IMG/VR virus record: IMGVR_UViG_3300001487_000119
Span: 64,001 to 128,000 of that record
DNA length: 64,000 bases
Reading direction: 5' to 3' (one strand)
Source: a virus
Lineage: Duplodnaviria; Caudoviricetes
This document shows, in pieces, positions 5,377 through 58,951 of this stretch; position 1 is the first letter of the stretch, and the number at the start of each line of letters is the position of its first letter. The translations under genes and the position numbers were made by a program. Below the pieces are notes generated by a model. That model was not told the origin of the DNA and searched no databases. It saw only the letters and a program-made list of their open reading frames with translations.

Positions 5377-5419
5377 CTTAAATAAATATATTGTATAAAT
5401 AAAAAATATAATTAAATAT

Positions 5420-5923
5420 ATGAAAAGCGTTAGCAAAAAAGCTTTATATGAAAGCATTATGACTTCGGTTGCTAAACAAGTAAAGAAAACATTGAATGAG
5501 AATAATAATGTGAATGATAATGCAGATTAGTTGAAGGAGTTAATTGCAGAGCATGAAAGTAGGCTTAGAGTATTAAAAAGAAAGCTTGCAGTATTAGAAA
5601 GTGAAAAGGAAATAATAGATGCGTTTGCAAAAGGTATTAATGACTGGACTGATTGGCATGATTCACATTATAGCAATTATATTCGTGAAGGTGAAGAAGG
5701 AAAAGAGTTAATAGAAGCCAGTGGTGGAATATGTAATTATATATATGAAACTGGTTGTAAAGATATGTATTCGTTTATTGAAGATTGTTTAGATGATATA
5801 GATATAGATATAGATGATGATGATTTTGAATTTGATGAAGATTTTATAGAGGATTTTATTAAAGAACATGATGAAGAAATTAATGGTGTATTGGCATCAG
5901 ATTATGGATATGTCTTTGAATAA
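5420..5923 (+). CDS. Leader-A family protein with acidic cargo (1 TAG)
   Basis: MKSVSKKALYESIMTSVAKQVKKTLNE..., in frame through TAG 5528 with the 5531 ORF. Confidence 0.75.
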
Positions 5924-6050
5924 TGATTAATTATATAATTTATTAAAAAATATAAAATTAAAGAAATCGGATTTCTTTCCTTTTTATTTCTTATTATTTT
6001 TGAAATTTATCACAATAAATAAATATATTATAAAAAATAATATAATAATT

Positions 6051-6461
6051 ATGAAAAGAGATAACAAAAAAGCTTTATATGAAAGCATTATGACTTCTGT
6101 AGCTAGAGAAGTTAAAAAGACTTTAAATGAAACTGTAGTAGATACAGAAGATAATGAAACTGAGACAATCAATCATTGTTTAGATGAGATTAAACATTGT
6201 TTGTATAATGGCTGTGATTTTACACAATATAACAAGTATATTGATAGTAAAAAATTTTATGTAATAACTGGATGTATATATGATTGTATTTAGCAAGCTA
6301 GCAATATTGCAAAAAATCTTACAACACTCGCTGAAAATTCTGCAGTATATAAATAGAATTTAAATAATAGTATATCTATATCTATGTTAGAAAAATGCAG
6401 CAATCAATTAGAAGATCTTGATAGTCTTATGAGACGGTTAAAACGCGCATTAAATTATTAA
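6051..6461 (+). CDS. Leader-A family protein (2 TAG)
   Basis: MKRDNKKALYESIMTSVAREVKKTLNE; reads to TAA 6459-6461. Confidence 0.75.
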
Positions 6462-6498
6462 TATTAAAAAGGCGGATTTTATTAATTTTAATTAATAA

Positions 6499-6530
6499 AA
6501 GAGAGAATCAAAGAAATTTGGTTCTCTTTT
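6499..6530. terminator. Rho-independent hairpin terminator
   Basis: aagagagaatcaaa...tttggttctctttt; near-identical inverted copy at about 9271-9302. Confidence 0.6.
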
Positions 6531-6590
6531 ATTTTTGTCTAATTATTTCTTAAATAAATAATAAAAGAAATAAAAGTATATATTATAATT

Positions 6591-7496
6591 ATGCGAAAAA
6601 ATTCTGATTTATATAATAAAATAATGGAGCAAGTTGCAAAAGAAGTTAAACGTTCTTTAAATGAAGTTGACGATATTGCTCCAGTTAAACAAGAAGTTTC
6701 TGGTGAAGTTTATTTAGTTCGCTGCGATGGAATGAATAAGAAAACATTAGATATGTTATCATCTAAATTACCAGCATTTGATAATTATGGTTCCGGTTCT
6801 ATCAGAGTAACATGCAAAACTCATGAAGAAGTTATTAAAGTCATTTCTTTATTGGTTAATTCAAATGTTTTAGATATTGATAATTCTCTTGGACAATCTC
6901 CTAGAATTTCAATTCAAAAAGTTAATAAGAATTCTGTTAATGATTCTGTTAATGAAAATCGTCAAGAGTTATCACGTGATTATATTCAAATGAGCAAAAT
7001 TAAAACACCAAGGCAACGAGTTAAATTTGAAATAATCCAAAAAATTAATAAAGGTGAAATTCCTGCAACTCCTGAAGCAATCCGTGCAGAAATTGATAAA
7101 TCCGGTGAATGGATAGATCGTTCTGAACCAAGAATTCAAATGGATGTTGATCTTATTATGAGAAAAACTACTGATGAAATAATGGAAGGTGATTTTATAA
7201 CAGATTTCATATATTCAAAAGATAATTATGAACCTGGTGAATTTAGTAATGGAATGGAAGCTGCAGAAAATCATGTTAAATGGTTAAAAAAGCATGGGCT
7301 TGGTGTAAGGGTTGAAGAAGGTAGATATTCATTTAAATATTATATTCATTATAGCACTAAAAAACAATTTAATGATTTAGTTCAATGGATGGCATGGCAT
7401 TGTGGATTTACTGATACAATAACAAATCCACCATCAAAAGAAGATAGAAAATATTTTGAAGAAATTGTTAAATCAGGAAAGAAAACTACATGGTAA
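6591..7496 (+). CDS. Divergent leader-A family protein
   Basis: MRKNSDLYNKIMEQVAKEVKRSLNE; AATAAATA upstream. Confidence 0.75.
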   Translation: MRKNSDLYNKIMEQVAKEVKRSLNEVDDIAPVKQEVSGEVYLVRCDGMNKKTLDMLSSKLPAFDNYGSGSIRVTCKTHEEVIKVISLLVNSNVLDIDNSLGQSPRISIQKVNKNSVNDSVNENRQELSRDYIQMSKIKTPRQRVKFEIIQKINKGEIPATPEAIRAEIDKSGEWIDRSEPRIQMDVDLIMRKTTDEIMEGDFITDFIYSKDNYEPGEFSNGMEAAENHVKWLKKHGLGVRVEEGRYSFKYYIHYSTKKQFNDLVQWMAWHCGFTDTITNPPSKEDRKYFEEIVKSGKKTTW

Positions 7497-7506
7497 AACA
7501 AATAAT

Positions 7507-7534
7507 AAAGGAATCAAATTAAATGATTCCTTTA
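7507..7534. terminator. Bidirectional terminator between convergent genes
   Basis: aaaggaatca-aattaaa-tgattcctttt. Confidence 0.65.
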
Positions 7535-7537
7535 TTT

Positions 7538-8659
7538 TTAATCATTTGCAATTTCTGCTTCAGCATCTTTTAAATACTGATCACTTGTTTTTATTAATTG
7601 CAATTTAAATTCTTCACTGACATCTAAATCATTAATAGCTTCATTTATTAGTTCAGATGTTGTTTTTTCTTTATATTCTATATTCTCATCAACATTAACA
7701 CTTAGTGTTTGTCTGCTAATAACGGGTTTGACAAATTTTGCGGTTGTTCCAATTCCTAAATTATAAATATCAAATTTCTTTTTATATTCTGGAATATTTT
7801 CTTCTTTAATGATAATATAATTATAATTGTTGTTTAGAAATTCTTGTCGTTCTCCAATAGACATTTCAACATATTTTTCCATTAATAAACTGTGATATAT
7901 TGGGCTATAATGATTTTCAATAAATTCATGTTTATTAGTTTTAAGATTAAGCAAATATAATCCTTTTTGATTTCCAATATCTTTTTTATCCATATGATAT
8001 GGTGAACCAACATATATACATTTCTTTGTTTCTTGACGTTTATGAATATGTCCTGAATAAACAACCCCATTAAATGCATCTGTATTGACACCTTCAGTAA
8101 TAAGCATTCCATTGTCAAATCGCATTTTTGCTAAATCTGTATGCATAAATGCATATTTGGCTTTATTGTTTTCTATTAAACAATTTGTTTCTTGTGAATG
8201 ATCGCCTAAATATGGAATTGCAATAATTTTAGTATGTTTAGCACCTTCATAATTTATATTCAATATAGTTGGTTCAGTAATAAGATGGACATTATTTATA
8301 TATTGAATCGCACGAAGTGAAGTGTTTCCTGTATTAGTTTTCTTTGCTAAATCATGATTTCCATTTATAATATAAGTTTCTATTTCTTTAGCAATATCTT
8401 CAAATACATCAATTGCTAAATTATAAACATTAATATCAGTGGCTCTGCGATCATTAAAAGTATCCCCAAGGTTCACCAGAACCATTCTTTCACCATCTTT
8501 TAATGAGGTTTTAAGTTCTTTAACCTTTGGAATAAAAAAGTCATAGAAATAGTTTTTCATATTCTCTTGCCACTCTTCTGAATTAACATGAGTGCCAAAA
8601 TGAATATCAGAAATCATTAAAATATGCGATGCTTTAATGTCTATTTGTTTTGTTTCCAT
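7538..8659 (-). CDS. Recombination nuclease, gp47/SbcD/Mre11-like metallophosphoesterase
   Basis: SDIHFG, LGDTF, GNHD, SGHIH, YVGSP motifs. Confidence 0.93.
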   Translation of the reverse strand: METKQIDIKASHILMISDIHFGTHVNSEEWQENMKNYFYDFFIPKVKELKTSLKDGERMVLVNLGDTFNDRRATDINVYNLAIDVFEDIAKEIETYIINGNHDLAKKTNTGNTSLRAIQYINNVHLITEPTILNINYEGAKHTKIIAIPYLGDHSQETNCLIENNKAKYAFMHTDLAKMRFDNGMLITEGVNTDAFNGVVYSGHIHKRQETKKCIYVGSPYHMDKKDIGNQKGLYLLNLKTNKHEFIENHYSPIYHSLLMEKYVEMSIGERQEFLNNNYNYIIIKEENIPEYKKKFDIYNLGIGTTAKFVKPVISRQTLSVNVDENIEYKEKTTSELINEAINDLDVSEEFKLQLIKTSDQYLKDAEAEIAND

Positions 8660-8720
8660 TATTTAATAAAACATTTTTATATTATAAATTATATACAAAA
8701 ATTTGAAATGGTTTAATCTA

Positions 8721-8736
8721 AATAAATATATTGATA
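8721..8736 (+). promoter_or_regulatory. Putative late promoter AATAAATA(TATTGATA) (representative copy)
   Basis: Extended motif repeated at 27947, 37475, 58212, 63246-63261(-); core motif upstream of sheath, gp15-like and head-core genes; resembles T4 TATAAATA. Confidence 0.6.
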
Positions 8737-8756
8737 ATAAAAAATAATTTAATAAT

Positions 8757-9203
8757 ATGAAAAAGATAGTAAAAAAAGCTTTATATGAAAGCATTATGAC
8801 ATCTGTGGCTAAAGAAGTTAAGAAAGTATTGAATGAATCAGATTCATTAAGTGATTCATTAAATGATATTAAAAAACAACTTATTGAAAATGGTGATGGA
8901 ATATATTTTGTATATAGCGATTATATATCACGTGATGCAGCATACCTTTATGTTGTTAAAAATGGAGAAATTATTCATCAAGAACACCCAAGTTGTTTTA
9001 TGACACTTAATTATTATGGCGATGGTAAGCCATGCGGTATTATTCCTTCATTAAATAAATTAATTCGTGAATATTATGAATTAAATTTATATGTAGCAAA
9101 TAAAGGCTGGTATACATTTCCGCAAAAATGGAGAGAATGTGATTGGACTACAACACTTGAAAAATATGGTATTAATTCTACACTAATAAATATTGATATT
9201 TAA
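8757..9203 (+). CDS. Leader-A family protein
   Basis: MKKIVKKALYESIMTSVAKEVKKVLNE. Confidence 0.8.
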   Translation: MKKIVKKALYESIMTSVAKEVKKVLNESDSLSDSLNDIKKQLIENGDGIYFVYSDYISRDAAYLYVVKNGEIIHQEHPSCFMTLNYYGDGKPCGIIPSLNKLIREYYELNLYVANKGWYTFPQKWRECDWTTTLEKYGINSTLINIDI

Positions 9204-9322
9204 TTAAAATAAAAGGAATCATTTAATTTGGTTCCTTTTATTTTAATTTTAGTTTAATTTTAATAAAATAAAAAGAGAACCAAATTTTTTTGATTCTCTT
9301 TTCTTTATTATGTTTTTCAGAA

Positions 9323-12300
9323 TTATTGATCTGATAAACGTTGAAGTGTGAACTTTTGAATAATTTTCTCCATTCCGTGATTCATCCACAAGTTGATTTC
9401 TACAACACATGCATCTGCTTCAATAACATCTGGTGTGTTATTAGTTTCATCACAAATAATTTCATAACGAACTAAAGCACCAGAGATTTGCATTGCAGAA
9501 AGAATTGGAGTAAGTTGTTGAACAATATTTGCACGAACTGCAGGAGTATTGTATTTAAAGTTATATTTCTTAAGAACTTTCTCACATTCAATTTCAGCAG
9601 TGTTAAGATTTTCACGAACATGAAGTTTATTAAAGTCTGACTTCATTGCTTGATAAGCTGTTTGATTACCATAAATCATGATAGAACCTTGATCCTTAAT
9701 AATTGTATTAACACCGAATGGTTCAAGATATTCACGATCTGTTAAGTCTGCTAAGAACTCAAGACCTTTAAGATATCTATTAGATAAGATACCGTTTTGG
9801 TTAGCACAAATTGCATATGGATCATTGATACCATTGAATTTACGATTCAAAACATTTGCTACATCAGCTGCTGGTGGAACTACAATCTCTTTACCATTCT
9901 CTTGGTAAATCAAGTGTGGCCAGAAGCATGCTGTAAACTTAGCACCGTCTTCTTCACTTGGTAAGCTGAAGATAACAGTTGAACCCATTTCAGTATTACC
10001 GCCTTCAGGAATATATTTAGTATTCATTGATGGACGAGCCTCAGCACCTGGAGTATAAGTATCACAGAAATAAGGATTAGAACTTACTGCAAATTGTTTT
10101 GCTGATGGCAAGTTAAGAATTGCAGTACATTTACCTCTTTCTTGTGCAGTAATTGATAACCAGCGTTTACCACCAAGTTCTGAATTAAGACCATATGACA
10201 TTGAGTCAATAATATAACGGTAGTCAACCATTGCAGGATTCATTAAACCGCGTTTGATACCTTCATCATTCAATACTGAATAAACTTTTTCAATACCGTC
10301 TTCGATATTAAGTTGACCATTTGAATCATAGCCTGGACGATGACGTGATGTAATTGTAAGACCCTTCATAGGAATAAATCTTAATGAACCTGAAATTCTA
10401 TCATCAGAAATTGGTAATTGACGAATAATTTCATTATTTTCAATAAGAACAGGAGCAGTACAAGTTACCAAATAGAAACCAAATTTACCGGTTGAGAACT
10501 CTGCATAATTACCATTATAATCATATGATACACCTTGATAAGAAATCTTATTATCAGTTTTATTATATGGAATAAATTGTTTTCTAATTACACGAGCAAG
10601 ACCTGGAATAAGTTGGTATTCTTCTGTTTGTCCAGCTTCATTTTTATATGTAATATTATGTACATAGTCACCAAGTTTAACCTTTGCATCAGACCATTGT
10701 GAAGCATCTGTAATAATAAACATATTCTTAGTATCTGCTGATACAGGAGCAACATCACCCCATAATGTTGGATCACTAAAGTATTTAACATTAGATATTG
10801 TTTCTTGAACACCGTCTTTATCAGCTTCAACATAATTATATGATAAGAAATTAATACCATAGTATTCATCTAATGCCTTATTTTCATCTACTTTATTTTC
10901 ATTTAATACTAGCAAACCATCTTTTTCTTCAGCAGATACAATATATAATTGTTTAGTACTTGGATCTTGTTTAACGCCTACAGTATATGATTCGCAGAAT
11001 GTTGAATTATCTAAAATAAAGAATGCAGAAACATCAACAGTATCATTATCTAATACTTTATCTTTACTAAGTTCAATATCAAAATATAATGTTTTTGTAG
11101 ATAATGTACCAGTATTAGAAACAACATAATAATTGTTATTTAACAAATCAGCTACATTTGCTTTACTGTATATTGAATTATCAAGCATTGTAACATCTTT
11201 AAGGAATTCAGATGCAACAAATTTACCTGGGCGAATTGCATCAACAAAATCATTAATAGATGGATTACTATAAAGTGATACATCAGCAATAGACGGATTA
11301 TCAACCTTTACTAATTCTGTTAATTCAAATGCAGGTGATTTATAAAATTTCTTTCTATCTGAATTATAAACATAGACACTTGCATCAATTGTATCTAAAA
11401 TTGGTGCTTCTATCCATTTTTTATCAACTGGTTCTTTTTTCATAAATGCTTCATGACCAACCATATCAACAATATATTTAGCAACAGATTCGCCACCTGC
11501 AACCTCACCGCTATTGTCAATATCTAATCCCCAGCATCCAGAATCAGGATCACTAGAACCAGTATCTTTACCAGAATAATCATATGTAAGAACATTTGCA
11601 AGATCTTGGTTAAATGACATTAACAAACCTGTTCTTTCAGTAGCAGCATTAACTTTCTTTTCAAGGTTAAGCATATTACCTTGTTTATCAGTAAAATCGG
11701 GAATAATACATCCAGTCCATGAACCAAGAACTGTTACACCTTCAGCACTCATGAATTGATTAATACGATTCTTGATAATACCTTTTTTATCAAAGAAACC
11801 TTTCCATACAGGATCTGTAGAAAGAACCGGATAATTAGACCAGTTACCTTTAACACAAACTACTTGAAGGAAATAATCAGAAATATTATCATATGGACGA
11901 ATCCAGCCAAACGGAATATTTTCACGGCCACCGAACCAAGATTCAGCAGTTACTTCATAACCTGGCATACTAGCTGGTTTGAATACCAAAATAGAAATCT
12001 CTTCTGTTCCAACATTTACAAAGTTAAGTAAGTTACCATTTTCAAATGTATATGAAGTAGGATTTTCTGGAGCATTCAAATTACGAGCAGCTTCGGCAGT
12101 TAACAAATCTTTATCTGGAACCCAGAAACGTGATCTGTTAAATACACTAGCAAACGGAGTTTTTGCTACATATGGAATATTATCACCTTTAACTGTTCCA
12201 TAAATAACTCTATCTATAGAATCTGCCAAATAATCATATTCTCCATATGTATTATCTGAACTATTACATGCAGGGTTAGCCTCACCAGCACTCATTGATA

Positions 12301-14009: not shown

Positions 14010-14780
14010 TTACAAATTTATTACTGGACGAATTGGAAGCCCTTTGTAACGAGCGCACTAAGCACAAAAAATTTCAGGTTTTAATTTATTAGTATTAAAA
14101 TTTAATGTCATGCCATATTGCATATTATTAATTTTAGAATTAATAACTGTATTAGTCCAATAATTTCCATTTGTAGGATATTCATTTACATCTTTTTCTC
14201 CACATTTTTTACATGCTGGAAAAAATAATTCATTACCATTTTTCCCTATAAATAACCAGCCATCTAAATAATATACATTTCTATATTTTTCAACTGGTTT
14301 ATTTATTGTATTTTTTATTAATTCATTAAACTATTCAGGTGTTGGTATGCAAAACTTTAAATTACTATTCTAATACGCAGCATCATCTTCAGATAGTAAT
14401 GTATTTAAATTATCTTTATTATTATATTTAGTTAATTCTTTTCCAAATTTATATGTTTCCCATGAATATTCTGGCTTTGTCCCTAATTCTGTTTCACCCC
14501 AAGCAAAGTAATCACCATACCAATCTAAATATGTAGTATAATAAGGATCTTTATTTAAAAACCTCCAATCACACCCAAGATTATATTTACACCAAAGAGT
14601 TCCTGAAGGAAGTCCAAGATCAACTACTTCATTCATTAAATCTAACCATTCTTTAGTTCCACCTTTATACTTAACTTTACTACTAGTTTGACCTTGAATA
14701 TCATCTTGATCTTCAAAATCATCTAAAGCAAACTTAATGCCTCTATTAACAGCTTCTAATATTTTATTATAGTTTTTCAT
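14010..14780 (-). CDS. Leader-B + VDLGLPSG lectin-like domain protein (3 TAG)
   Basis: MKNYNKILEAVNRGIKFALDDF...VDLGLPSGTLWCKYNLG...GLPIRPVINL, ends TAA. Confidence 0.8.
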
Positions 14781-16759
14781 ATATTATTAATATCTTCCTT
14801 ATTTACAACAGCTCTTATTTGTAATCCAACACATCTATCAATATCTTTAATTGACGGTTTTACATTTTTGAATATATTTAATTCATATGCCATGTATTCT
14901 TTACCTTTAATATTTTCACATGCCCAATAATAACCGCCATATTTATAGATACTTAATTTATCTTTTTCCATAATATTTGTATATGGCATAAATAATTTTT
15001 CTTTATTAATTTTACTGATAAATGTAATACCGTTTAATCCTGTAATTCCTTGATAATCCTATTCAAATTTTATTTTAGTATTTTTTAATAATTCTTCAAA
15101 TTGTGCTTTTGATGGAATACAAAAATTAAAATTAAAAGATTTAGTTAATTTTTGAACAGCTGCATCATCATCTGGTATAAGCGTATTTAATTTATCAAAT
15201 CTGACATTATATTTAGGATTATTACCATATTTAGTTAATTTATCCCATGCACCGTTTGCATACTTATAAGTTGTCCAATCATATTGTGCTTTTGGTTCCA
15301 ATTCACCCCAAGCATAATAATTACCTATCCAATCTTTAGCATTATCTAATTTATCAATATTAACACCTAAATTATATTTGTGCCATAATGTTCCTGAAGG
15401 CAATCCTAAATCAACAACTTCTTTCTTTATATCTAAATATTCTTTCCAACTACCTTTATAATGGTTTGTTTTACTGCTAGATTGACCTTGAAGTTCTTCA
15501 TCATTATCAAAATCATCTAAAGCAAAACGAACATTATTATAATTAAATGATTCATTTAAATTTACTTTATTTTGATATGGACGTAATGTTACTTGCATTA
15601 TATAACATACTGTTGGAAATAAATTTTTCCATAAATAATTTTTGGGATCTGTTTTCTTTTTAAGATCAAATACGACAGGATCATTATTATTTAAAATAAA
15701 ATTAATATATAATTTCTTATTTTCAGCAAAATTAACTGTAAAATAAAAACCAAAATCAGTTTTTTCTAATCCAGTAATTTCAATAGTATCAACTAATGCA
15801 TCTTTTAATAATAATGTTCTTGTAATATTTTTATAAATTAATTTTTCATATTCTTTATTAAAATAGTCAAGTGCAAGATCAATACGTTTTTCTCTTGGCA
15901 CCGGTAAACGTCCAAGTGAATCTGTTTCTTCTCGGAAATATGTATATGGTATCATTAAAAAATGTAAATTCTAAATATATGTATTATATTCATTAATTTG
16001 TTCATTATATTCATCTATTTCATTTTCCGGATGATTGTTTATTTCTGCATAATTACGATTATCTTGCAAATCATCAACTAATTTTTGATAATGCTACTGT
16101 AATTTATAAAATTCTATATATTTTTTATTACTTTCACCTGTATTATATTTGTCATAACAATCATTTATAAAATCAACTAAATATTGTTCAAGATCCATTT
16201 TTATTTCATAGGTATCTTCTAATAACTTATTTTCAATTCCAATTTTATTATTTTCTTTGCTTTGTAATGAATTAGAATTTAAACTGTATTTTAATTCATA
16301 ATATTTTTTAACAGATTGATAACGTTCTAATAATGTTTTATCATTAGAAGACAAATCCAAACAATCTCTTGATTTAATATTAATTGTTGCCGCATTTTGT
16401 TTAATATATTGTGTAAATGTAGAACGTGTCTGAATTGTATTTTCTAAATATTCTAATAGATATTTAATAAAATTTTTAGGTTCATACATTAAAAATGATT
16501 CAAGATCCTGATACTTCTATGCACCATTTATCATTCCATAAAAATCATGAATATCATTTTGAGTATATTTAGTTTTATTATTTCTTAAATATTGAAGATA
16601 ACTATATATTTTTTTAATAATATTTTCAGATTTACCGCATTTTTCTTTTGGTAAACCATATTTTAAACCTACTTCTAATTTTTCTGATTTAGAAGGAACC
16701 TAATCTTTGATATGTAATAAATCTTGTCTAACTTCAAATTCTGAAATTTTATTTTCCAT
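14777..16759 (-). CDS. 660 aa protein: unknown N-terminus plus internal leader-B/VDLGLPSG module (5 TAG)
   Basis: ORFs 16094-16489, 15059-15955 and 14777-14989 share one frame and are separated only by TAG. Confidence 0.75.
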
Positions 16760-16869
16760 AATTTTATATATACATTTCTATTCAATATATTTATTAAAAC
16801 AAATGACTCTAGAAAAATCTAGAGTCATTCTTAAAAGAAGAATTTACTTATAATAATTACTCATCATAA

Positions 16870-20233: not shown

Positions 20234-21136
20234 ATGATAAAAGAAGCCTACGTTTATTCATATGTGAATAAAATTACAAAGAAAACCTATATAGGTAGTA
20301 GAAGTGGATATAACACATCTGCCGAAGAAGATTTTAATATTAAATATAAATCATCTAGTAAAAATAAAGAATTTTTAAATGATATGAATAATAATTTATT
20401 GGATGGATATATTATATTAAAAATAAATTGTGAAAATTCTAATAAAAAAATAGTTCAAATAGAACATAAATTAATATAGGCATATTGGAATAAATTTGGT
20501 AAAGAAAATTCTTACAATAGATATTGCAATGGAAATTTTAGTATGGCTGGACATAAACATTCAGAAGAAACCAAAGAAAAATGGTCAATACATCGCCGAG
20601 GAGAAAATAGTCCTACATTTGGAAGACATTTAACAGAAGAACAAAAATCCCATTTACGAACATTTTGTGGAGAAAAATCATCAATGTATGGTAAGAAACA
20701 TTCAAAAGAAGCATGTGAAAAAATAAGTAAAGCTTTAAAAGGCAGAACTTTTTCAGAAGAAACTAGACAAAAACTTAGTATTGCAGGAAAAAGTAGACAT
20801 GTAAGTGAAGAAACTAAATAGCGTATTAGTAAAACATTAAAAGGCCGAACTTTTTCAGAAGAAACTAAATTAAAAATGAAATTAGCGGCACAAGGTAAAA
20901 ATAAAGGAAGACTTTTATCAAAAGAACAACGAGTTGCTATATCAAATAGATTAAAAGGACATAAATGTTCAGAAGAAACAAAAATGCGAATATCTTCTAA
21001 ATTAAAAGGATTAAATAGAAAACTATATTTATATTATGATGAAAATAATAATTAGCATATAATGGATAGAGCTAATAAAAATAAATGGCATCCAAATTGG
21101 ATAGAAATAAAAGAAATAAAAAATAATAATGAATAA
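20234..21136 (+). CDS. GIY-YIG homing endonuclease with NUMOD3 repeats (3 TAG)
   Basis: YVYSYVNKITKKTYIGSR; repeated HSEETKEK / FSEETRQKLS; one frame to TAA 21134-21136. Confidence 0.85.
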
Positions 21137-21164
21137 AGGAGCAAAAATAATTGCTCCTTTTTAA

Positions 21165-21686
21165 TTACTCTGTAACTTTTGGTTCAGTTGGTTCTGGTTT
21201 CTTTTTAGATACCTTTATTGTTGGTACTTTTTTAACTTTAATTAAATTTTCGTTAATTAACTTATTTTCTACATCAGCTTTTGCAAAACCTTCATTAATT
21301 TGTTTTGGCATTGCCTCATATAATAAATGAGTTGTTACTGTATCATTTGTTAATTGGCTTTTAGGTTTAAACCACTTTTCAATCCAGCTGCGCATAAATG
21401 GAATATCATATATACCATTAGATGCAAGGCCAACTACTGCACAAAGACAAATAACTCCAAGCCATACCGGGTTTCCAAAAGTAATTACTTTGAGACCCCA
21501 TGCAGCACATGAAAATCCAGCACCGAGAACCCATGCAATAAGCTGTTTCAACCAAGCACGGTGCTTCTCCGGAACATACTTCTCAACAAGTCCTTGATTA
21601 ATTAAACCAGCGATAAAGGTAGTCATAGTCACCAAAATTGGTGCGATGTACCAGAATGCTTCACTAAAAATTCCTGTAATATCCAT
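21165..21686 (-). CDS. Putative holin / membrane protein
   Basis: Three hydrophobic segments ending VGLASNGIYD, basic C-terminus. Confidence 0.6.
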   Translation of the reverse strand: MDITGIFSEAFWYIAPILVTMTTFIAGLINQGLVEKYVPEKHRAWLKQLIAWVLGAGFSCAAWGLKVITFGNPVWLGVICLCAVVGLASNGIYDIPFMRSWIEKWFKPKSQLTNDTVTTHLLYEAMPKQINEGFAKADVENKLINENLIKVKKVPTIKVSKKKPEPTEPKVTE

Positions 21687-21697
21687 AAACTTTTTAT

Positions 21698-23098
21698 TTA
21701 ATTTTTTATTATCTTTTTTAACAATGATTTTGCATATAACCATTGATATTTATATTTGTATTGTTTATTAAACTCTTCAATCATCGGTTTAATAATATAA
21801 AATATTATCTCTCCAGTCGTTTGAGTTGATTCTGTAATTTTAATACTGTTAAATAACTCATTAATAATATTAGAATATTTTTCAGTATGTGTATCTTTCG
21901 TAGTTTGATTAGATTCTGTAATTTCAACAGTATTAAATAACTCATTAATAATATTAGAATATTTTTCAGTATATGTATTTAATTCACCATTTTTAAATTT
22001 AAGAGTTTCCATTTCATTAATTAATAATGTAGTTTCTAATAATATATTTTTATATATAAAATCATTTTCATAAGTATCTAATAATAACCAAGGTCTTCCA
22101 TTATAAAGAGATATTAATGTATTTTGAAACCTAATAACAGATGCATCAGTCAAATCATCTTTATATGTTTTAATAATCTAAATTCTTTTCTTTAATTCTT
22201 TTTGTTGTTTTTTATTAAGATTTTTAATATATTTTTCCCATACCTCAAAATGATTATTTAATATTTTTTCTCTAGATGGAATTGTTTTAACAAAATTTAT
22301 AATAAATGAGGTAATATATTTTTCTTCATTATATGCATTTAACCATGTCGGTATATCATATATTGTCATTCCATTATTTTTTAAATTTTGCATTTTTATA
22401 TGCAATTCTTGAGAATAATCTATATTTTTTCTATTATTTTCTAATGATAAAGCATACTTAATAATTTCGTTTTTAGCTTCATTTTTAAAAATCATTAATT
22501 CATCTATTAAGCCATTTTCTTTATTAAAATATCTATTAATAGTTTCAATACAAAATTGAAGCGGAAATTTATTAACTTCATCAATTAATAAATTTAATTG
22601 ATTTGTAATATGTAGTGTATCATTAGATTTTTTGTCATTCTTTACATAACTAGATGGATCATAAGTATAATAATATCTAATTCCATAATTTTTGCCAATG
22701 CGTAATAAATCAAAATCTGCAGGAATATAAAATTTGTTTGGGTCATTTTTATCTACCTGAATATGTTTAACAGCATAATCCAATCTTTCTTGAATTAATC
22801 CAAATGGATCATTATTAAATTTCCAACAAATTTCATTAATAGATTTTTCCCATTGCTCTTTATTTAATTTACTAGCAGATTCTGATGTATTTTTAAGAAT
22901 TTCTTGTATCTTTTTAGTAAATTGAGTAAAATCATTTAAAGTTTCAACATGTTCGTATTCTTTAAATAATTGATTTACTTGATCATTTACTGTATTAATT
23001 TCATTTTCACTTATATGTTCGCCTGTTGTTCTAAATACAACATCGTCATAAATTCCAATATATCTTCTAAATAATTTTTCAATAGTTTCTTTTTTCAT
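21698..23098 (-). CDS. Hypothetical protein, 466 aa (1 TAG), with internal tandem duplication
   Basis: ORFs 22178-23098 and 21698-22153 joined through TAG. Confidence 0.65.
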
Positions 23099-24240: not shown

Positions 24241-25062
24241 ATGAAAAAGCTTTTAAAAGAATCATATGAACCAGAAATATAGAATGGAATATATAACGCT
24301 GCATTGATGAATTTAGATGATGTTCGCAAAAGTTTGCCAAAGAATACACCTAAAAAAATTTGGGATTTATATCAACAATTATTTGACGTATTAGAAAATG
24401 AAAATGTTAATAATATTACTAGTGATGGATTTACTATTTTTATTCAAGCAGCTGATCCACATGATAGATATTATCAACAATTTGTAGGAAAAACTTTTGA
24501 ACTTTATAATACTCATCATATATCAAAAGAAGAAGAACAATATCTTGGCGTTGAAGGATGCGATTATGTTGGTGAAATAAATGTTAATGGTGAAATTCAA
24601 CCAATACCATTCGTAAAAAATAGTGTAAACAGTAAAATACCTATATCATTTGAATGGATTTATGCTGGTTATATAAAATCTAAAATTCAAGAAAGCAAAT
24701 ATATAAAAAAAGATAATAAAAAAGATTTGTATGAAAGCATTATAACTTCTGTTGCTAGAGAAGTTAAAAAAGCTCTTAATGAAGAATATAATTCTGTAAA
24801 TGAATCAGTTTCAACAAGCGAGCTAGTTAAATATATATGTTATAGTTTAAATACCAATAAAAGCGAGGATGAAGAAGAAGTTTGGAGAGCTGTATTGCAA
24901 TTCAAAGATGAACATCCTGGAGAACCATTTAGATATACAGTAAGTCCAACTGCAAGTTTAAAAAATAAAAGAAATACAATAAATGGACAATTATTAATTT
25001 TAAAAATTGGAGATGATGCATGGTTTTGGAAAGCATCTGAAAAAATATTTGAAAAAATATAA
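24241..25062 (+). CDS. Hypothetical protein with internal leader-A module (1 TAG)
   Basis: Starts MKKLLKESYEPEI(Q); internal KKDNKKDLYESIITSVAREVKKALNE. Confidence 0.7.
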
Positions 25063-25068: not shown

Positions 25069-26022
25069 ATGAAAAATAATCCAAAAATAATAAAAGTCAA
25101 TCCATAGAATATTCTGCCTGTAAATGAAGCATGGGCAGCTACTGCTGGTTTCTCTACATCACCAGATTATGGAAATCCAGCATTTTCTTATGAAATTAAG
25201 CCATTGTCATTCACTTTATGTTAGAAAGGAAATGATCCAGAACTGTTAGACAAAAACAAATCATTTAAGTTTTTTGTCGGCGACCATGTTTCTGGCTATT
25301 GCCCTTATGATGGAAAGAAACATGAAGGTATGATTAAATATTTCTATTGGGTTCCAGGAAGTGACGGAACAATGCCAAAATTTGTTTATATTCAAGATTT
25401 TTCTAATGAAGATACAATTCCGTTAGACGCAGAATCTATTAAACCTACTTTGACAAGATATACTCCAAATGATTTAGCAGTTAAAGATTATTATAGAGCA
25501 AGAGATACGGAAATTGCACATGATTATGGGGCAACTGAAATGCCAAAAACTGTTTTTGAAGGAAAGAATTTTAATTTTAATGAAACTTAGTTTAATTTTA
25601 ATAGTGTAAAAGAAAATTTAACATTAAATGAACAATATGCATATTTAAATGAAGCTAAAGTAATGGCTAAAAAATTTTTTAAAGAAAATTTTGATTTAAA
25701 ACCTGCTAAAGGATTTTCATTTAAACAATATGTAGACAAATCTACAGGTGCATATGTTACTACAGAACCTTCAGATGGAAAACCAACCGGAACTATGAAA
25801 TTTTTTGCTAAACATGGAATTTCTAAAGTTTACAAAGGTTCTATTGGTTTTTCAGAAAAAGAACAGAAATGGTATGGTTGGAGCCATAGAGCAATTTATG
25901 GATTCGGTGTTGGTTCCAAAGTAAAGAAAGGAGATTGCGGATATAAAGGAAAAGCTTGGACCGCTAAAACTTTAGATGATGCAAAACAAATGGCAAAAGA
26001 TTTTGCTGATACAGTAAGTTGA
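25069..26022 (+). CDS. Hypothetical protein, 317 aa (3 TAG)
   Basis: ORFs 25330 and 25663 are in frame with ATG 25069; several VNE/LNE sites. Confidence 0.65.
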
Positions 26023-26049: not shown

Positions 26050-26430
26050 ATGAAAAAAGATAACAAAAAAGCTTTATATGAAAGCATTATGACTTCTATC
26101 GCTAAAGAAGTTAAAAAGGTTCTTAATGAAAGACAAATATTATCAGAAGAAGAAAAACTTTCTAGAAGAATTGGAAATAAATTATCATTTAGAATTTATG
26201 GTGGAGATTGGAATGATATTTTAGATGCTATGGAAAATAATAATCCTGAAGAAGCAAGAGAAATTTGTAGAGCAATAAATAGGAGCTATCGTACTCGTGT
26301 ATTTTCTAGCGATGAAATAGAATTTATGATTAATAATTGGGAATTGTGTAAAGAGTCGGCACGTAAAATACGAAAAGAAAAAATTGAAAAATTTTATCGT
26401 ACAGGAATTTTACCAGAGCATTAGAGATAA
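26050..26430 (+). CDS. Leader-A family protein
   Basis: MKKDNKKALYESIMTSIAKEVKKVLNE; ends TAG AGA TAA. Confidence 0.8.
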
Positions 26431-26508: not shown

Positions 26509-27945
26509 ATGGCAAAAACTGAAATAACAGCAAAACAACTATATGAGAATAGAAATACTTCTGATGTTTTTTCTCGTCTTGTTATAATGGGAGTTCTTAG
26601 AGTTCTTAATCAAAAACTTAAATATACTTAGGTTTGGGAAGATACAGAAGAAGGAACTCAGGAAATAACAGTTCCATTTTTCTTTGATTTTTCTGGTGGT
26701 GCCGGAACATCTGAAAAGTTTATTCAAGACAATTATATGAACTGGACTGATGATGAATGTACTTCAATGGGAATCAAAAAAGTGAATGGTGATTATAAAC
26801 CTATTCCATATGGTGTTATTTCTCTTGATTCAACTAATATCGAATCTGGAAATATTTCTAATAGATTTGTTATGGGACAATTTCAAAAAAGAATAAATGG
26901 CGAATTAAAACCATATGTTGCCTGCCTTTATTCTATCCCGTTGACAATGAGTTTTACCATTAATGTTGCATGTGATACTGTTAATACAATGTGGAAAATA
27001 GAATAGGCATATAGAGAATTTTTCTATAAAAACAAAACATTCCATATTAATTATAAAGGAACTGTTGTTCCATGTAGAATAGGCTTTCCAGAATCATTGA
27101 CAGAAAGCAAAACTGCTAATTATACTATGGGTGCTCAACAAAAAGATGGTGCTGATGTCAAATTAAGTTTTAGCTTAAATTGTGAAACATACCAACCTGT
27201 TTTTGATCCATATACAGAAATGCCGGCTAACAGAAATATTAAAAATTTCCAAGGCGGAATAACACTTCAAGAAAAATCAAGTTTAGCAACAGACAAATAT
27301 GGAGAAAAACAAATCATTAAAGAAAGAGTAATAGATGAAAACGGTTATATTGAAGCAGAACATATAGACAGATTGAATGTTGTTGCACTTGAAGATATAT
27401 TGTTAAAATGGAATTTCTTCTATAATTATTCAGATTTATTGCATGTTGATATATTATATAAAGAATACGGAGATGAAGAATATCATACAATATTAAATAA
27501 TATCGACAACCATAATTTCTGTCATATGAGCATTTCCGGTGAATTTGTCAATGAACCTGAAATAGATGTTATTATTCCTCAAGACGATGATGTGATGATT
27601 TTGGGACAACCGGTATTCAAATTCTATTTGACTCCAGACAATACAATAACTGGTGATACTTGCGTAGTGATAGATAAAGGATAGTTCTTATTTAGTCGAC
27701 AAGCTGAAAGATGCAAAATAGATGCAATATTATCATTTGAAGTTGAAGGAAAAATAAAAGAATATCCTATTAAAATTAATTTATTAAATGGGGCAGTTGA
27801 TACAGAGAATCCTGTTGAAATGAATTGTATTGTATATCCTAAAGAATTTGATGCCAGAAAGATTCAATTATTTGTTAGAGATCATGACAGACCTGATATT
27901 ATAGCGGCATTTTAGGATGAAGATGAATTTGTAAAAGTTTTTTAA
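26509..27945 (+). CDS. Tail completion / sheath stabiliser (gp15-like) with C-terminal extension (4 TAG)
   Basis: EITVPFFF, IPYGVISL, SIPLTMSFTINV, KIE(Q), LSFSLNCETYQP; single frame of 478 aa. Confidence 0.6.
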
Positions 27946-27981
27946 AAATAAATATATTGATAACAAAAAAATATATAGAAT

Positions 27982-28647
27982 ATGAAAAGAGATAATAAAA
28001 AAGCTTTATATGAAAGCATTATGACTTCAGTAGCTAAAGAAGTTAAGAAAGTATTAAATGAATCAAATAATGAAGATGAAAATTTTGATTTTGATTCATG
28101 GGATGATTTAATGAATTATCTCAAAGATAATGATGCGTATGAAGGAATTGAAAAAATATTTGATTTGGTAGATGAGTTTGAAACTGAAGAAGGTAAGTAT
28201 GATAGGTATGGACAATGGCATAAGCCAAAATAGCATGAATGTGGAGAGTTGATTAATTGTTATACATATAAAGCATTAGCAGAATATATACGAGATACAT
28301 CTAAAGCATTGCTAAAAACTGCAGAAGTTATTGAAAATATGGAACCAACTATTCATATTAATTTGATAGATTTATGTCAAAATATTGTGAATAAATTTGA
28401 TATGAATGATTGGTGTGAATGGATAGATGAAGGTGATGATTCATTAATTTCATTATTAAATGCAAATGGAGTTATGGAGTTTTTAGAAAAAGAATATGGT
28501 GTAGATAATGAAGATTTAATATTATATATAAAAGATAATATTTATAAAATATGTGATTATTTACATGATTATGAACCAAGTGAACATGAATTAAAATCAT
28601 GGGGAAGGAAATATGGATATTCAAAATGGGGTCAAGATGAAGATTAA
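27982..28647 (+). CDS. Leader-A family protein, acidic cargo (1 TAG)
   Basis: MKRDNKKALYESIMTSVAKEVKKVLNE; joins the 28249 ORF. Confidence 0.78.
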
Positions 28648-28694: not shown

Positions 28695-29117
28695 ATGAAA
28701 AAAGATAATAAAAAAGCTTTATATGAAAGTATTATGACTTCAGTTGCTAAAGAAGTTAAGAAGGTATTAAATGAAGATGTTGAATATACAGAAGATGATG
28801 ATTATGAAGCTGAAGCTGAACAATATGGAATAATTTATTATAAAGATATAATAAAGTGGTTGTAGACGGAGGATAAATTTAATATAGAATTATATGCTAA
28901 TGATGTTGATGAAGCAGATTGTGCAGCAAAGTTATTTTTGAATTGGGAAAATCCAAGTCGTCCTGAATATTATTTTCATAAAATAGATCATAGTTGTGCA
29001 GTACTTGACGCTATTACTAATTTGTCAAATGAATTATTAAGTGGTTCATCAATTAATGACTTATATAATGAATATGGTGACTCTATATGTTTTAATATAA
29101 AGGATTATGATTATTAA
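28695..29117 (+). CDS. Leader-A family protein (1 TAG; missed by the ORF track)
   Basis: MKKDNKKALYESIMTSVAKEVKKVLNEDVEY...; ends TAA. Confidence 0.78.
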
Positions 29118-34422: not shown

Positions 34423-34444
34423 TAAGTTAAAATCAAAAAAAGAA

Positions 34445-34480: not shown

Positions 34481-34774
34481 TTAATGACGATATGGTTGTG
34501 GTACAAGTTGATCATCATATAATTTATATAATATACCAGCTAAAAGCTGCCTATATTTATCAGTATATGTTAAATGTTGTTCTTCTGCAACTTCTTCAGC
34601 TATATCATAAAGCCAATCTACAAATTGATCATCATCTATTTCTTCTGTTATTAAATAAAATTCAGAAGGAAAATAACTTTTTTGCTCAGCATATTCATTT
34701 AAAGACTTTTTAACTTCTTTAGCTACAGAAGTCATAATGTTTTCATATAAAGCTTTTTTATTATCTTTTTTCAT
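34481..34774 (-). CDS. Leader-A family protein
   Basis: MKKDNKKALYENIMTSVAKEVKKSLNE. Confidence 0.78.
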   Translation of the reverse strand: MKKDNKKALYENIMTSVAKEVKKSLNEYAEQKSYFPSEFYLITEEIDDDQFVDWLYDIAEEVAEEQHLTYTDKYRQLLAGILYKLYDDQLVPQPYRH

Positions 34775-34806
34775 ATTCATATGTTTAATTGTTTTTTATT
34801 ATTTAT

Positions 34807-37489: not shown

Positions 37490-38173
37490 ATGAAAAACTA
37501 TAATAAAATATTAGAAGCCGTTAATCGCGGTATTAAATTTGCTTTAGATGACTTTGATAATGAAGAACCTCAAGGACAAGTTAATACTAAAGTTAATAAT
37601 ACCAGTAATATTAAAGAATATGTAAATTGGTTAAATTTAGTTGATAAAGTTAATGAATATGATATTACTAAAGAAGATGTTGCAGAATTAATGAAACTTA
37701 GCCAATTATTAAATTTGAAATTTAAAGCAGATAATGATACATTAAAAGCAATTGTTTATTATATATGTGGAATTAATCCTCGAGCTGATTTAAATTGGAT
37801 AGATACTAGCAGTATAACAGATATGTCATTATTATTTCATTAGACTAAATTTAATGGAGATATTTCTGAATGGGATGTTTCTAATGTTAAGACAATGCTA
37901 GAAATGTTTGAATCTACACCATTCAATGGCAATATATCTAAATGGAATGTTTCTAATGTAAAAAATATGGCATGGATGTTTGCCCATTCTAATTTTAATA
38001 AACCTATAGGAAATTGGGATGTTTCTAATGTAGAAACTATAGAATATATGTTTTATGATGCTAAAAAATTTAATAAAGATATTTCTAAGTGGGATATAAA
38101 CACATACGATACTGATTATATGTTTTCTGGATGTCCAATAAAAAAAGAATTTAAACCTGTATTTCCATGGTAA
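37490..38173 (+). CDS. Leader-B + DUF285/BspA-like repeat protein (1 TAG)
   Basis: Leader B, then ADLNWIDTSSITDMS, FNGDISEWDVSNV repeats. Confidence 0.82.
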
Positions 38174-38892
38174 AAAATTATAATAAAATATTAGAAGCAG
38201 TTAATCGTGGTATTAAATTTGCATTAGATGATTTTGAAGATCAGGATGATATTCAAGGTCAAACCAATAGTAAAGTTAAATATCAAGGCGGAATAAATGA
38301 ATATCTAGATTTAATGAAAATTGTAGTTGATTTAGGTCTTCCATCCGGTAATTTATGGTGTAAATATAATCTTGGCTGTAATTATGAAAAATTAAATAAT
38401 GACTCAGAAAATACTATACCGGATATGTGGTATGGAGATTATTATGCATGGGGACAAACAAAACCAAATAGTCTTGAAGAATATGATAAAGCATTTAGTG
38501 CAAATATATTAACACATGATATTGATCCGTCATATCAAAATATGCATTTTAAAGATTTTAAATTTTTTACACCTTCTGTTAAAGATTTCCAAGAATTATT
38601 ACAAAATACTATTCAAAAAAATGTACAAAATTATAAAATTAATTATTTAAACGGTATAGAATTAACTAGTAAAATTAATGGAAATAAATTATTTTTACCG
38701 AATAATGGTTTACATTATAGTGATGATGATATACCGGTTAAATCAATGCTTGTCGGCAGTCTTTCTTATTGTTGGACAGCAACTGCAAATAAATCAAATG
38801 CAAGCGATGCTATAGTATATGCTAAATCATTTGGTGATTAGGATAAAAGTTTTTTATGCGGTATACGACCTGTATTAAATTTAAATAGATAA
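38167..38892 (+). CDS. Leader-B + VDLGLPSG domain protein (1 TAG)
   Basis: Conserved C-terminal GIRPVLN lies after TAG 38839. Confidence 0.8.
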
Positions 38893-50867: not shown

Positions 50868-50877
50868 AACTTAAAAA

Positions 50878-51087: not shown

Positions 51088-51092
51088 ACTAA

Positions 51093-55900: not shown

Positions 55901-57943
55901 TATAATTCAATAGATAATGGTGTCCTTAATAACCAATTTGTAACATACATTGATATTAATATTAAAGATTTCAAAAAATAGTGGGGATAGTTTATAGTTG
56001 ATCCGTCTATTAAAATTTCAATGGATGTTAGTATTGCTAATATTGATTATGATTTAAATTGGCAATATAATTATATTGTTGAGCAATTAACATCTCGCCG
56101 TACATTTAAAGTAATTTTGGAAGATATTGATTCATCCATAACTAAACTTAATAATTATGTAAAATTAACAACATCATTATTTGAAACCAGCAATAATTTA
56201 TTAACAAAAAATACTAATAATTGTAATAGTATAAACGGTAGTTTAAATTGTGGTGGTAGTTATAATATTGATTCAAGCTTTATATTATATAATACACCGG
56301 ATAATACTAAAGGAATAAAACCATTAATTGTCGATAATTATATTTTATGTGATAAGCAATTTATAGATATTCATAAAAATTCTAATTTAATGTATAATGG
56401 TTTACAAAATAATATAATGATTGGATTATCTGATATACCTATTTCAGATGATATTGATACAATTAAACTTAAATTATCATTGGAAATGGGTAATCCGATG
56501 TTAGCTAATATGTATTTTAGATTTGTTGTTAAACATATTAATATAAAAGTTAATATTGATAATAGCGATACTCCTAGTATATTTACAACATTTGTTCCAA
56601 ATACATTTAATGTTGATACAAAAAATACATATTTGGCTAATATATATGCAGATGTTAATACTTCACGTAAAATTAATCGTGTAAATTATAAATATATTTC
56701 AAACCCGATAGATATAACATTTAATCCGTTATCATATACAGTTTGTCCGAATGATGCCGAAACTACATATACAAATATATATGGCAGTTTAGACAAGTAC
56801 GGTATTAAAGATCAAATCAAGAAAGAACTTAAATTCTTTAATTCATCTGTATATGAGCATAATCCATATAATTATACAGGAAAACAAATACGTGAACATA
56901 GCTATTATCCGTTTAATAATCTTTATATTAAAAAATCTTATATACAAGATAATGTTAAGGCTATTAATGTAAAACCTGTTTCATTATGGGATGTAATTCA
57001 AAAAACAAATTTAACAACATTATCTTCTAGTATTAATGAAGAATTAAAGCAACATAATGTTTTAGATTTTATTGAAGGTAACAAATATTTAAGTATTGTA
57101 TATAATTCTGTTATTATGTCACCGAGAATTAGAAATGACAAATATTGTTTCTATTATAATGATAATTTATATCCGCGTGCTAAATATGATCAAAAAGTTA
57201 ATAATATGCCTGTATTTGCATATGATACACAGTCTATAGAATTACGTGATGACATTTTAATTAATTCAATGGATAAATGGAATGATTATTATACAGAACA
57301 TAAAACTTTTGATTCTGAAAAAGCATATCATGGTGTTTTAAGTTTATATGGTAATGGTTATACTCAAATAGTAGATGATATCAGCACTGATATATTTAAT
57401 GAATATGTTATGGATCTTAAGAAAGTAAAAAATCAAAATGATGTATCTATTAATTTATATTCCGGAATTAATGAAGTTGATATCAATCCGATGAAACAAG
57501 ATCAACCGAATAATAAAGAATATTTTAGAGGGTTCTTATATGATATAAACTGGGAATTCCCATATTATGATAATAAAAATGAAATAATTCCATATAGAAT
57601 AGTATCACCATTTGATAATTTCTTAAATAATACTAGTACTAATATTCAAGAAATTTATCAAGATTATTATAATGCATTAACAGACTTAACAGATGCTTCA
57701 TATGGCACTAATATGGTTCCATCTAATTTATTATTTGATATTAATCCGCGTATTGCATATAATTTTGAAAATAATGGTGTAAATGTTTTAATGTTAAGAC
57801 GCCCATCTATTGGAACTGATACTGATAATATTAGTACTTCTACAGATTTTAAAGAAAAATATGAATTTAATAATCAGTTATTTGATTTAGTATCTGCAAT
57901 AGAAAAATTATCATCACCATATATTATAAAATCAAATGAATAA
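52967..57943 (+). CDS. Very large Asn-rich protein, 1658 aa, probably virion structural (9 TAG)
   Basis: ORFs 53663, 54671, 55268 and 56021 all in frame with ATG 52967 and separated only by TAG; collagen-like GLPGLGINGKIGE(Q)G start; late-type promoter. Confidence 0.72.
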
Positions 57944-58246
57944 AATAACTGAATTAAATTATATTAAATTTGAAAATAGATAACTAATGCATTAAACCAG
58001 GATTCTGTAAATCGAAGACAACATCATTAATCAGAATGAATTTCAGATATTGAAATAAACTTCATTATTAAAATAATAAAACCACTAAACATACTTTAAA
58101 TGCTTAGTGGTTTTTGTTTGTTTATATTAAATTTAAAATAAATCTATTAACCGGAATAACTAACATTAGTTATTTTATGATAGGTTGAGAAAAAAGTTTT
58201 TTTGCAGTGAAAATAAATATATTGATAACAAAAAATATATAGAATA

Positions 58247-58951
58247 ATGAAAAGAGATAATAAAAAAGCTTTATATGAAAGCATTATGACTTCTATAGCT
58301 AAAGAAGTTAAAAAAGCATTAAATGAATATGATAGTTGGACTACTACAACATTGGATGTGATAACATAGGATGAAGAACAATCTGATGCTGATTTTGTAG
58401 ATTTGGGACTATCAGTTAAGTGGGCTAAGTATAATTTAGGTGCAACACCAGGTAAAAATGCTAAAGATTGGTATGGTGATTTTTATGCATGGGGTGAAAC
58501 TGAACCAAAATTAGATTATAAAATGAATAATTATAAATTAAACAATTATAATGACAAATATCATTAGGGTAAAAAGATGGTTCTTGATCCTAATGATGAT
58601 GCTGCGACTGTTAATTATGGCAAACCTTGGAGAATGCCAACAAAAGAAGAAATAAGAGAATTATTAAAACATACTACTAATCGTTGGGTTACTAATTATA
58701 AAGGAATTAAAGGATTAAATGGCCGATTATTTATTAGTAAAATAAACGGTAATTCAATTTTTATTCCTGCGGCTGGTTATTGTGAAGGTTCTGATATTAA
58801 TGATGTTGGTTCTTATTGCTACCTATGGTCTTCAAGTCTTAATTTAGACTACACATATGATGCATACTACTTTGACTTTAATTCAGACCATATTATTGCG
58901 TTAAGCTGCAATCGTTGCGATGGTTTTTCAGTTCGTCCTGTCATGGCTTAA
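58247..58951 (+). CDS. Leader-A + VDLGL lectin-like domain protein (2 TAG)
   Basis: MKRDNKKALYESIMTSIAKEVKKALNE...FVDLGLSVKWAKYNLGA...WRMPT...GFSVRPVMA. Confidence 0.82.

Follow-up and report, generated by a model that had tools for sequence, protein, structure and literature searches.

An N-terminal leader ending in Leu-Asn-Glu on unrelated proteins of a giant phage related to Lak megaphages: a candidate capsid-targeting propeptide

The window analysed in this study, a stretch of 64,000 nucleotides (nt) corresponding to bases 64001–128000 of the 204,228-bp viral contig IMGVR_UViG_3300001487_000119 (completeness 41% according to CheckV), contains a series of genes whose mostly unrelated products carry a common 27-residue leader, named here leader A, ending in Leu-Asn-Glu (LNE). 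The most economical reading of these sequence data, to which a probability of roughly 0.55 can be assigned, is that the leader is a cleavable capsid-targeting propeptide analogous to those of the internal proteins of phage T4. One tag with a probable protease site is shared by numerous small proteins unrelated to each other, which makes it most likely that the tag loads fast-changing cargo into the capsid. Coordinates given below are those of the window, unless contig positions are indicated.

Recurrence, selection and predicted structure of the leader

A search with a hidden Markov model (HMM) of the leader against the 725 open reading frames (ORFs) of the contig returned 18 matches with E-values ranging from 1e-19 to 3e-6, the next match having an E-value of 0.019; the recurrence of the leader is far above chance. 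A preliminary description of this DNA had listed 11 leader sites in the window, and a sequence check found the leader at all of them (11/11). Leaders begin at 5420, 6051, 6591 (a divergent copy), 8757, 26050, 27982, 28695, 29158 and 58247 on the plus strand and at 34780/34774 on the minus strand, and an internal copy occupies positions 24703–24783, where ATA stands at the ATG position and the leader is fused in frame to the upstream 154-codon part of the ORF 24241–25062 (plus strand, 273 aa). The consensus of the leader is MKKDNKKALYESIMTSVAKEVKKxLNE, with nine columns invariant among the 11 window sites (L9, Y10, I13, A18, V21, K22, L25, N26 and E27). The abrupt end of homology at LNE, claimed earlier, was confirmed: among the 16 cargos of at least 50 aa encoded by the contig, only those of the genes 29158 and 58247 are related (BLAST E ≤ 1e-5). 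The claimed conservation of upstream DNA was reproduced as well, 27945–28050 and 58210–58315 agreeing in 102 of 107 aligned columns, with the similarity of this pair running from an ATAAATA box to just past LNE.

The leader is selected at the peptide level. A comparison of 19 core codons in 153 pairs of 18 copies gave a pS (synonymous) of 0.507 and a pN (non-synonymous) of 0.151, and Ser12 is encoded by AGC, AGT, TCT and TCG, i.e., by codons of both the AGY and TCN types. Phage Lak-A1, the DNA of which is far diverged, has nine leader matches with conservative substitutions and different codons, still ending in LNE or INE.

Modelling and composition suggest that the leader is a basic amphipathic helix, with LNE placed at a flexible junction. 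The hydrophobic moment of the leader core is 0.44, a value attained by 1.5% of shuffles, and the charge of the whole leader is +3. AlphaFold modelling of the conserved 301-aa member (mean predicted local distance difference test score, pLDDT, of 69.5) predicted the leader as a separate helix comprising residues 5–22, and both NE motifs of this protein lie in low-confidence linkers (residues 21–37 and 113–132). The second of these motifs is an invariant VNE at residues 120–122, just N-terminal to a hypervariable linker that is disordered in the model. The model of the 148-aa member, which is poor (mean pLDDT 50), contains a helix at residues 2–24. The Foldseek search of the PDB with the 301-aa model found no structures at E ≤ 0.001, the best rows having a template modelling score of about 0.2; comparing solved structures with the leader profile yielded one chain only (E 0.29), and the ESM Atlas contained nothing usable for the 301-aa member or the 27982 cargo. 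A Sec or lipoprotein signal was ruled out, the consensus containing neither a hydrophobic run nor Cys, with seven Lys and four acidic residues among its 27 positions.

The T4 prohead protease gp21 cleaves after L/I-x-E (PMC9026906). The preliminary description had named both LYE and LNE as such sites. LNE fits the T4 rule; LYE was rejected as an obligatory site, since it is placed inside the helix predicted for the leader and is replaced by LYN both in one Lak-A1 copy and in the 301-aa conserved member.

Leader proteins and cargos in public data

The preliminary description had proposed searching related genomes with a leader HMM, and such a search, using a profile composed of the leader plus 15 residues, extended the family well beyond the contig. 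The profile matched 569 clusters at 90% identity among 7998 scored candidates; with clustering at 50%, at least 987 representatives were matched at E ≤ 0.001, 157 of them at E ≤ 1e-10. In 144 of the best 150 library matches, the match starts inside the first four residues. The strict leader pattern fits 235 of the 244 proteins fetched, being N-terminal in 226 and internal in nine; the leader ends in LNE in 233 of the 235 and in LND in two, and the residue that follows LNE is mostly D, S, N, G or E. Some database proteins have a common N-domain followed by the leader and then by differing cargos, and others contain two leaders.

The cargos are highly diverse: when 220 of them, each at least 50 aa long, were grouped by BLAST, 109 clusters resulted, and 81% of 212 cargos are net acidic. 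Pfam searches with 103 cargo cluster representatives revealed five families with one member each, one of them a methyltransferase domain (1e-15), and PHROGs searches with the same representatives revealed one family, annotated as of unknown function.

Candidate cleavage sites in head proteins

The contig encodes a gp23-family capsid protein (PF07068, 122.8 bits summed, contig 57433–59352). A gp21-family protease (PF03420, Peptidase_S77) was found above the cut-off, with 57–60 bits, in all three relatives tested, namely, Lak-A1 and two closer relatives, the genomes G001 and G002, the sbcD genes of which are 95% and 87% identical, respectively, to that of the contig; a single-protein search for further protease loci gave back only the two known contigs. 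The proteases of the relatives are 584–596 aa long, with an extended tail, acidic and scaffold-like, C-terminal to the protease domain. The motif [LIVM]NE occurs 10, 7 and 6 times in these three protease-scaffold proteins, for which shuffling gives expectations of 1.8, 1.4 and 0.84 (p 2e-4 to 6e-4); this corresponds to a five- to sevenfold enrichment, and the sites align at residues 19–21, at 178 and 190 (right after the protease domain), at ~215, at ~233 and at ~551 near the C-terminus. The N-terminal sequence ...PLKKLNE|G resembles the end of the leader, and T4 gp21, too, has a site conforming to its motif close to the N-terminus (PMC9026906). Directly 3′ of the protease gene of G002 lies a leader gene.

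The N-terminal propeptide of the capsid protein aligns with that of T4 gp23, whose cleavage site L63-T64-E65|A66 was verified; MINE|A (residue 19) and KSLNE|S (residue 53) are located within this propeptide. The C-terminal stretch of one leader protein (contig 5856–6809) is 45% identical over 78 aa (E 7e-12) to residues 34–108 of the capsid protein, with AINE aligned on the SLNE of the capsid protein. The proteins of the contig most enriched in [LIVM]NE include two leader proteins, the capsid protein, the Tad6-domain protein encoded at 25069–26022, and acidic proteins at contig positions 7698 and 20654.

The last two, encoded outside the window at contig 7698–8108 and 20654–22714, are very acidic and rich in xNE; one has four such motifs in its first 45 residues and the other begins with MRRKLNE. 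By analogy with T4 gp67, gp68 and gp22, they may be prohead-core or scaffold proteins that are cut into pieces.

Source contig and genetic code

The G+C content of the window is 27%. Among 50,697 phage records, nucleotide matches were found only with 15 Prevotella Lak phages (68–70% identity over ~1 kb), and the contig contains T4-type core genes encoding DNA polymerase, SbcC/SbcD-like gp46/47, a gp32-like single-stranded DNA-binding protein, primase, tail sheath and UvsX. The source is a giant gut phage akin to the Lak megaphages and possessing a T4-type head.

TAG is a sense codon for Gln in this contig. Leader genes contain in-frame TAGs, beyond which reading continues to TAA, and reading through TAG raises the cover by frames of at least 200 codons from 0.57 to 0.81. 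TAG columns in paralogous leader copies stand opposite CAA (Gln) or GAA, and in a second leader family, leader B, TAG aligns in 3 of 15 genes with the second Gln, which is conserved, of the motif QGQ. A tRNA gene with the anticodon CTA is located at contig 167827–167902, adjoining a leader gene. The same TAG recoding has been described for Lak phages (PMC8346664). Genes without TAG are mostly replication genes, and TAG is present in 11 of 17 leader genes. The earlier gene ends were, therefore, too short: with TAG read as Gln, which had been missed, leader genes extend to 5923, 6461, 26430, 28647, 29117, 29817 and 58951, and the cargos are longer than had been supposed.

Cassette architecture and expression

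Each cassette is a transcription unit of its own, comprising a promoter box, an A/T-rich untranslated stretch, the leader, the cargo and, usually, an intrinsic terminator. An exact ATAAATA is found 25–38 nt 5′ of the start codon in seven of the ten stand-alone window genes, and a hairpin with a T run lies 3′ of most leader genes, with six terminator-like hairpins observed vs 0.5 expected in 5300–9400. On the plus strand, the gene 5420–5923 (167 aa, with TAG read as Gln) is preceded by ATAAATA at 5382–5388 and 5395–5401; the gene 6051–6461 (136 aa) has boxes at 6015–6025 and a terminator-like hairpin at 6499–6530; the conserved 301-aa gene 6591–7496, which lies in the sbcD–sbcC gap, has a box at 6554–6560 and a bidirectional hairpin at 7504–7536; and the gene 8757–9203 (148 aa) has a box at 8722–8728 and a hairpin at 9202–9248. 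The gene 26050–26430 (plus strand, 126 aa) lacks an exact box. The genes 27982, 28695 and 29158 form a plus-strand tandem with a single hairpin at its end: the first unit, 27945–28647, comprises the box 27948–27954, the 5′ region and the leader gene 27982–28647 (221 aa), and it is followed by 28695–29117 (140 aa) and 29158–29817 (219 aa), the cargo of the latter being weakly similar to Lcl_C/DUF1566 and akin to the 58247 cargo. The minus-strand gene 34481–34780 (99 aa, beginning with MNMKK) has boxes at 34800–34810 and a hairpin at 34443–34476. Finally, the plus-strand unit 58210–58951 contains the box 58213–58219, the 5′ region and the leader gene 58247–58951 (234 aa) with an Lcl_C-like cargo.

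The box ATAAATA agrees with the T4-type late promoter box, which is TATAAATA or NATAAATA (PMC1524935, PMC2984593). Of the 85 TAG-containing genes, 41 have this box in the 70 nt before the start, vs 23 of 129 genes lacking TAG (odds ratio 4.3, p 3e-6); when the leader genes are excluded, it precedes 29 of 59 and 19 of 123 genes, respectively. Its position peaks at −30 to −37. It also precedes the tail sheath gene and other large ORFs. Thus, the promoter proposed earlier as part of the cassette stands for the seven genes mentioned above, but as a general late-type box and not as a cassette-specific element. Sigma-70-type promoters were not in excess in the scans (35 vs 36 expected and 62 vs 64.5 expected). 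Judging by the late-type box and the in-frame TAG codons, the leader genes look late, as had been suggested. The ribosome-binding site included in the earlier definition of the cassette has to be dropped: a Shine–Dalgarno core is absent from the last 20 nt upstream of the starts (nine plus-strand window genes were scanned by pattern and 34780 was inspected by eye), therefore the cassette has no ribosome-binding site in the usual sense.

A metatranscriptome library made from what is probably the source sample contains contigs that match, with zero mismatches, 26088–26418, within the 126-aa leader gene, and 29564–29800, DNA carry-over being possible; contigs of this library, which may contain DNA, also match parts of the two next ORFs.

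Variation of the cassettes among relatives

Six genomes with sbcD genes 77–98% identical were compared at the sbcD–sbcC and sheath–sbcD gaps. All six contain a 301–314-aa leader member in the sbcD–sbcC gap, the cargo part of which is 47–74% identical in pairwise BLAST comparisons, together with zero, one or two extra leader cassettes; the six variable cargos of this gap show no mutual BLAST match at E ≤ 1e-3. The sheath–sbcD gap contains a leader cassette in two genomes and two unrelated genes in three, and is empty in one. The internal leader at 24703 has lost its ATG, and the cargo behind it is found in a stand-alone leader gene of the relative P0081. In DNA run X2, joints close to leader copies were discarded if their flanks were shorter than 30 letters, being likely artefacts of repeats. 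The gene order indicates that close relatives swap cassettes at loci between core genes, in line with the portable module envisaged at the outset.

A second leader family

Leader B (MKNYNKILEAVNRGIKFALDDFEDQ..QGQ) is a second N-terminal family, present in 15 contig genes and in one internal copy. In the window, it occurs in the genes 14010–14780 (minus strand), 37490–38173, 38167–38892, and 60750–61556, 61564–62367 and 62377–63246 (the last three on the minus strand). Leader-B proteins are ~230–400 aa long, with TAG codons in all their genes, and the cargos comprise DUF285 repeats (135 bits for the 37490 cargo) and Lcl_C-like domains. Leaders A and B can be aligned end to end over 18 columns, if weakly (hhalign P 5e-4, probability 30%), and leader B ends in LDD.

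In five leader-B genes (60750–63246; contig 60462–64301), only 3 nt separate the ATG from a promoter-like box of 12 bases, AATAAATATATT, which hints that leader-B mRNAs may be leaderless or nearly so. Inside the minus-strand ORF 14777–16828 (683 aa), a stretch resembling leader B, ..NVRFALDDFDNDEELQGQ.., precedes a domain similar to the 29158 and 58247 cargos; one cargo type thus occurs behind both leaders.

Neighbouring genes

Among the neighbouring large ORFs, PHROGs and Pfam searches gave names to replication genes and to the tail sheath, UvsX, PhoH and a helicase only. The gene 25069–26022 (plus strand) encodes a 317-aa late-operon neighbour without a leader, located among the leader genes, with a C-terminal Tad6 domain (92 bits), an inhibitor of type I Thoeris. 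Its product contains three [LIVM]NE motifs vs 0.18 expected, two of them just before Tad6, and its N-terminal ..PVNE|AWA is similar to ..MINE|AWA of the capsid protein.

Directly 3′ of the three tandem leader genes, the plus-strand ORF 29953–33453 encodes a protein of 1166 aa, the N-terminal half of which is coiled-coil-like and the C-terminal half very acidic. No other stretch is similar at the nucleotide level to Lak-A, Lak-B and Lak-C; the protein has no family match, and its ORF is partly covered by the RNA-library contigs.

Discussion

According to the propeptide reading, the helix would dock the tagged protein on the prohead core late in infection, and the head protease would then cleave after LNE, leaving the cargo free inside the head; the cargo would exit with the DNA and act early in the next cell, and the fast turnover of the cassettes would reflect an arms race with the host. 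An anti-defence role of the cargos, raised in the preliminary description, has analogy and the neighbouring gene with the Tad6 domain as its only basis.

In T4, N-terminal tags of 10–19 residues load otherwise unrelated internal proteins (PMC9026906, PMC3012670). The capsid-targeting sequence (CTS) system of T4, comprising IPI, IPII, IPIII and the Alt propeptide and involving removal of the tag by gp21, and the leader system are alike in several respects: a short N-terminal tag on unrelated non-core proteins, a tag end of the hydrophobic-x-Glu type, the presence of a gp23-family capsid protein and, here in relatives, a gp21-family protease, late-type promoters, and a gene set that differs among relatives. 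The i, i+3 spacing of the invariant Tyr10 and Ile13, which is the same as that of the T4 targeting residues 4 and 7 (PMC9026906), can be taken as a lead only. Unlike in T4, the leader is 27 residues long, the middle residue of its site is fixed as Asn, the cargos are mostly acidic, the protease of the relatives is fused to the scaffold-like tail, and TAG encodes Gln; and the scale is different, with 18 genes per 204 kb and at least 987 public clusters vs three in T4. The leader shows no detectable sequence similarity to its T4 counterparts, and the system seems to function like the T4 CTS system without being a member of it by sequence.

Several points weigh against the propeptide reading. The leader HMM gave at best −0.4 bits with T4 IPI, IPII and IPIII, in a match that was not N-terminal; the HMM misses the T4 internal proteins, and the link with T4 is, therefore, an analogy. 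The T4 internal proteins are basic (+2 to +9), in contrast to the predominantly acidic cargos found here, and the Lcl_C/DUF1566-like cargos look like surface-binding domains, which fit poorly with an internal, injected role. The nine internal leaders also count on this side, as does the fact that PF03420 was not matched in the contig itself, which is 41% complete. The T4 gp23 cleavage site aligns with GAY|A of the capsid protein and not with an NE motif. [LIVM]NE is in excess genome-wide (146 observed vs 84 expected), and some of the enrichment may therefore be due to composition or to constraints of another kind. A virion proteome of Lak-type phages was not found in the literature, and the available text of the Lak papers mentions no N-terminal tags, N-terminal data or protease. 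The leader itself was found neither in that text nor by means of the string LYESIM; the supplementary protein-family lists of the Lak study (PMC8346664), which lay outside this search, may include some of the leader proteins.

An unlikely alternative is that the helix serves in docking or assembly as an adaptor that is not cleaved, and that the variable proteins stay fixed to some structure of the virion, for instance, a capsid decoration, the neck or a fibre network. The alignment of leader B, which ends in LDD, with leader A over 18 columns speaks for such an adaptor, and so do the DUF285 and Lcl_C-like cargos of leader B, typical of surface proteins, and the Lcl_C-like cargo found behind leader A (29158, 58247) and behind the internal leader-B-like stretch of 14777–16828. 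Most leader-A cargos, by contrast, are small and acidic and lack adhesin features, and the five Pfam families account for 1 of 103 representatives each. Docking alone would also leave unexplained the near-invariance of LNE (233/235), the flexible junction and the conserved protease motif sites.

It is also rather improbable that the leader works outside the virion, as a module for interaction, localisation, oligomerisation or stability that ties late proteins to one cell partner. The amphipathic helix core and the contrast between the basic leader and the acidic cargos would suit this role, and the link of the leader to the virion, as read from the sequence, is indirect; yet such a module would explain neither the invariant LNE ending, nor the recurrence of the motif in the protease-scaffold proteins and capsid propeptides, nor the capsid-like tail of one leader protein, and a Sec or lipoprotein signal is, as stated above, ruled out. 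That the 5′ module is merely an expression or recombination handle spreading morons, the peptide having no role, is very improbable in spite of pairs nearly identical even in non-coding DNA and of the varying cassette content at one locus among close relatives, since the peptide is kept with synonymous sites half saturated, its pattern persists in Lak-A1 with other codons and the leader is retained in 987 clusters.

Two other known systems are partly similar to the one described here. Morons likewise have their own promoter box and a hairpin terminator, lie between core genes, often on the opposite strand, and vary in presence; the difference is that here one coding leader is common to all insertions, so that the products share an address. 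In phiKZ-like giant phages, the cleavage motif is a small residue-x-Glu, unlike LNE. As in the propeptide reading, many head proteins of these phages, which have propeptide-bearing inner-body and ejection proteins, are cut after Glu by a diverged gp21 homologue (the proteases phiKZ gp175 and SPN3US gp245); the processed proteins form paralogous families, and several of these proteins are ejected; a single portable leader on hundreds of unrelated cargos is not described in the available text of these studies (PMC9026906, PMC5694885, PMC10052503).

A further, doubtful extension of the propeptide reading is that a single prohead-address helix exists in two versions, leaders A and B, where proteins with leader A would be cut and their cargo freed and injected, and those with leader B would be loaded but not cut. 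In T4, Asp at the cleavage position stops processing and not targeting (PMC9026906); given this precedent and the LDD ending, leader B would remain uncut and its cargo tethered. If so, about 34 of roughly 230 contig genes would be addressed to the particle, and sequence alone would provide a two-state map of the packaged proteome, with hundreds of fast-swapping effector families.

Lak-type megaphages are uncultured, and the functions of most of their genes are not known. If the propeptide reading is true, the 27-residue tag and the (L/I/V)-N-E rule would predict head-loaded, DNA-delivered proteins from sequence, and about a thousand protein families would become candidate early-acting effectors, testable via metaproteomes, recombinant protease and Prevotella defence screens. 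The T4 principle would then extend to a far larger scale and to a TAG-recoding phage.

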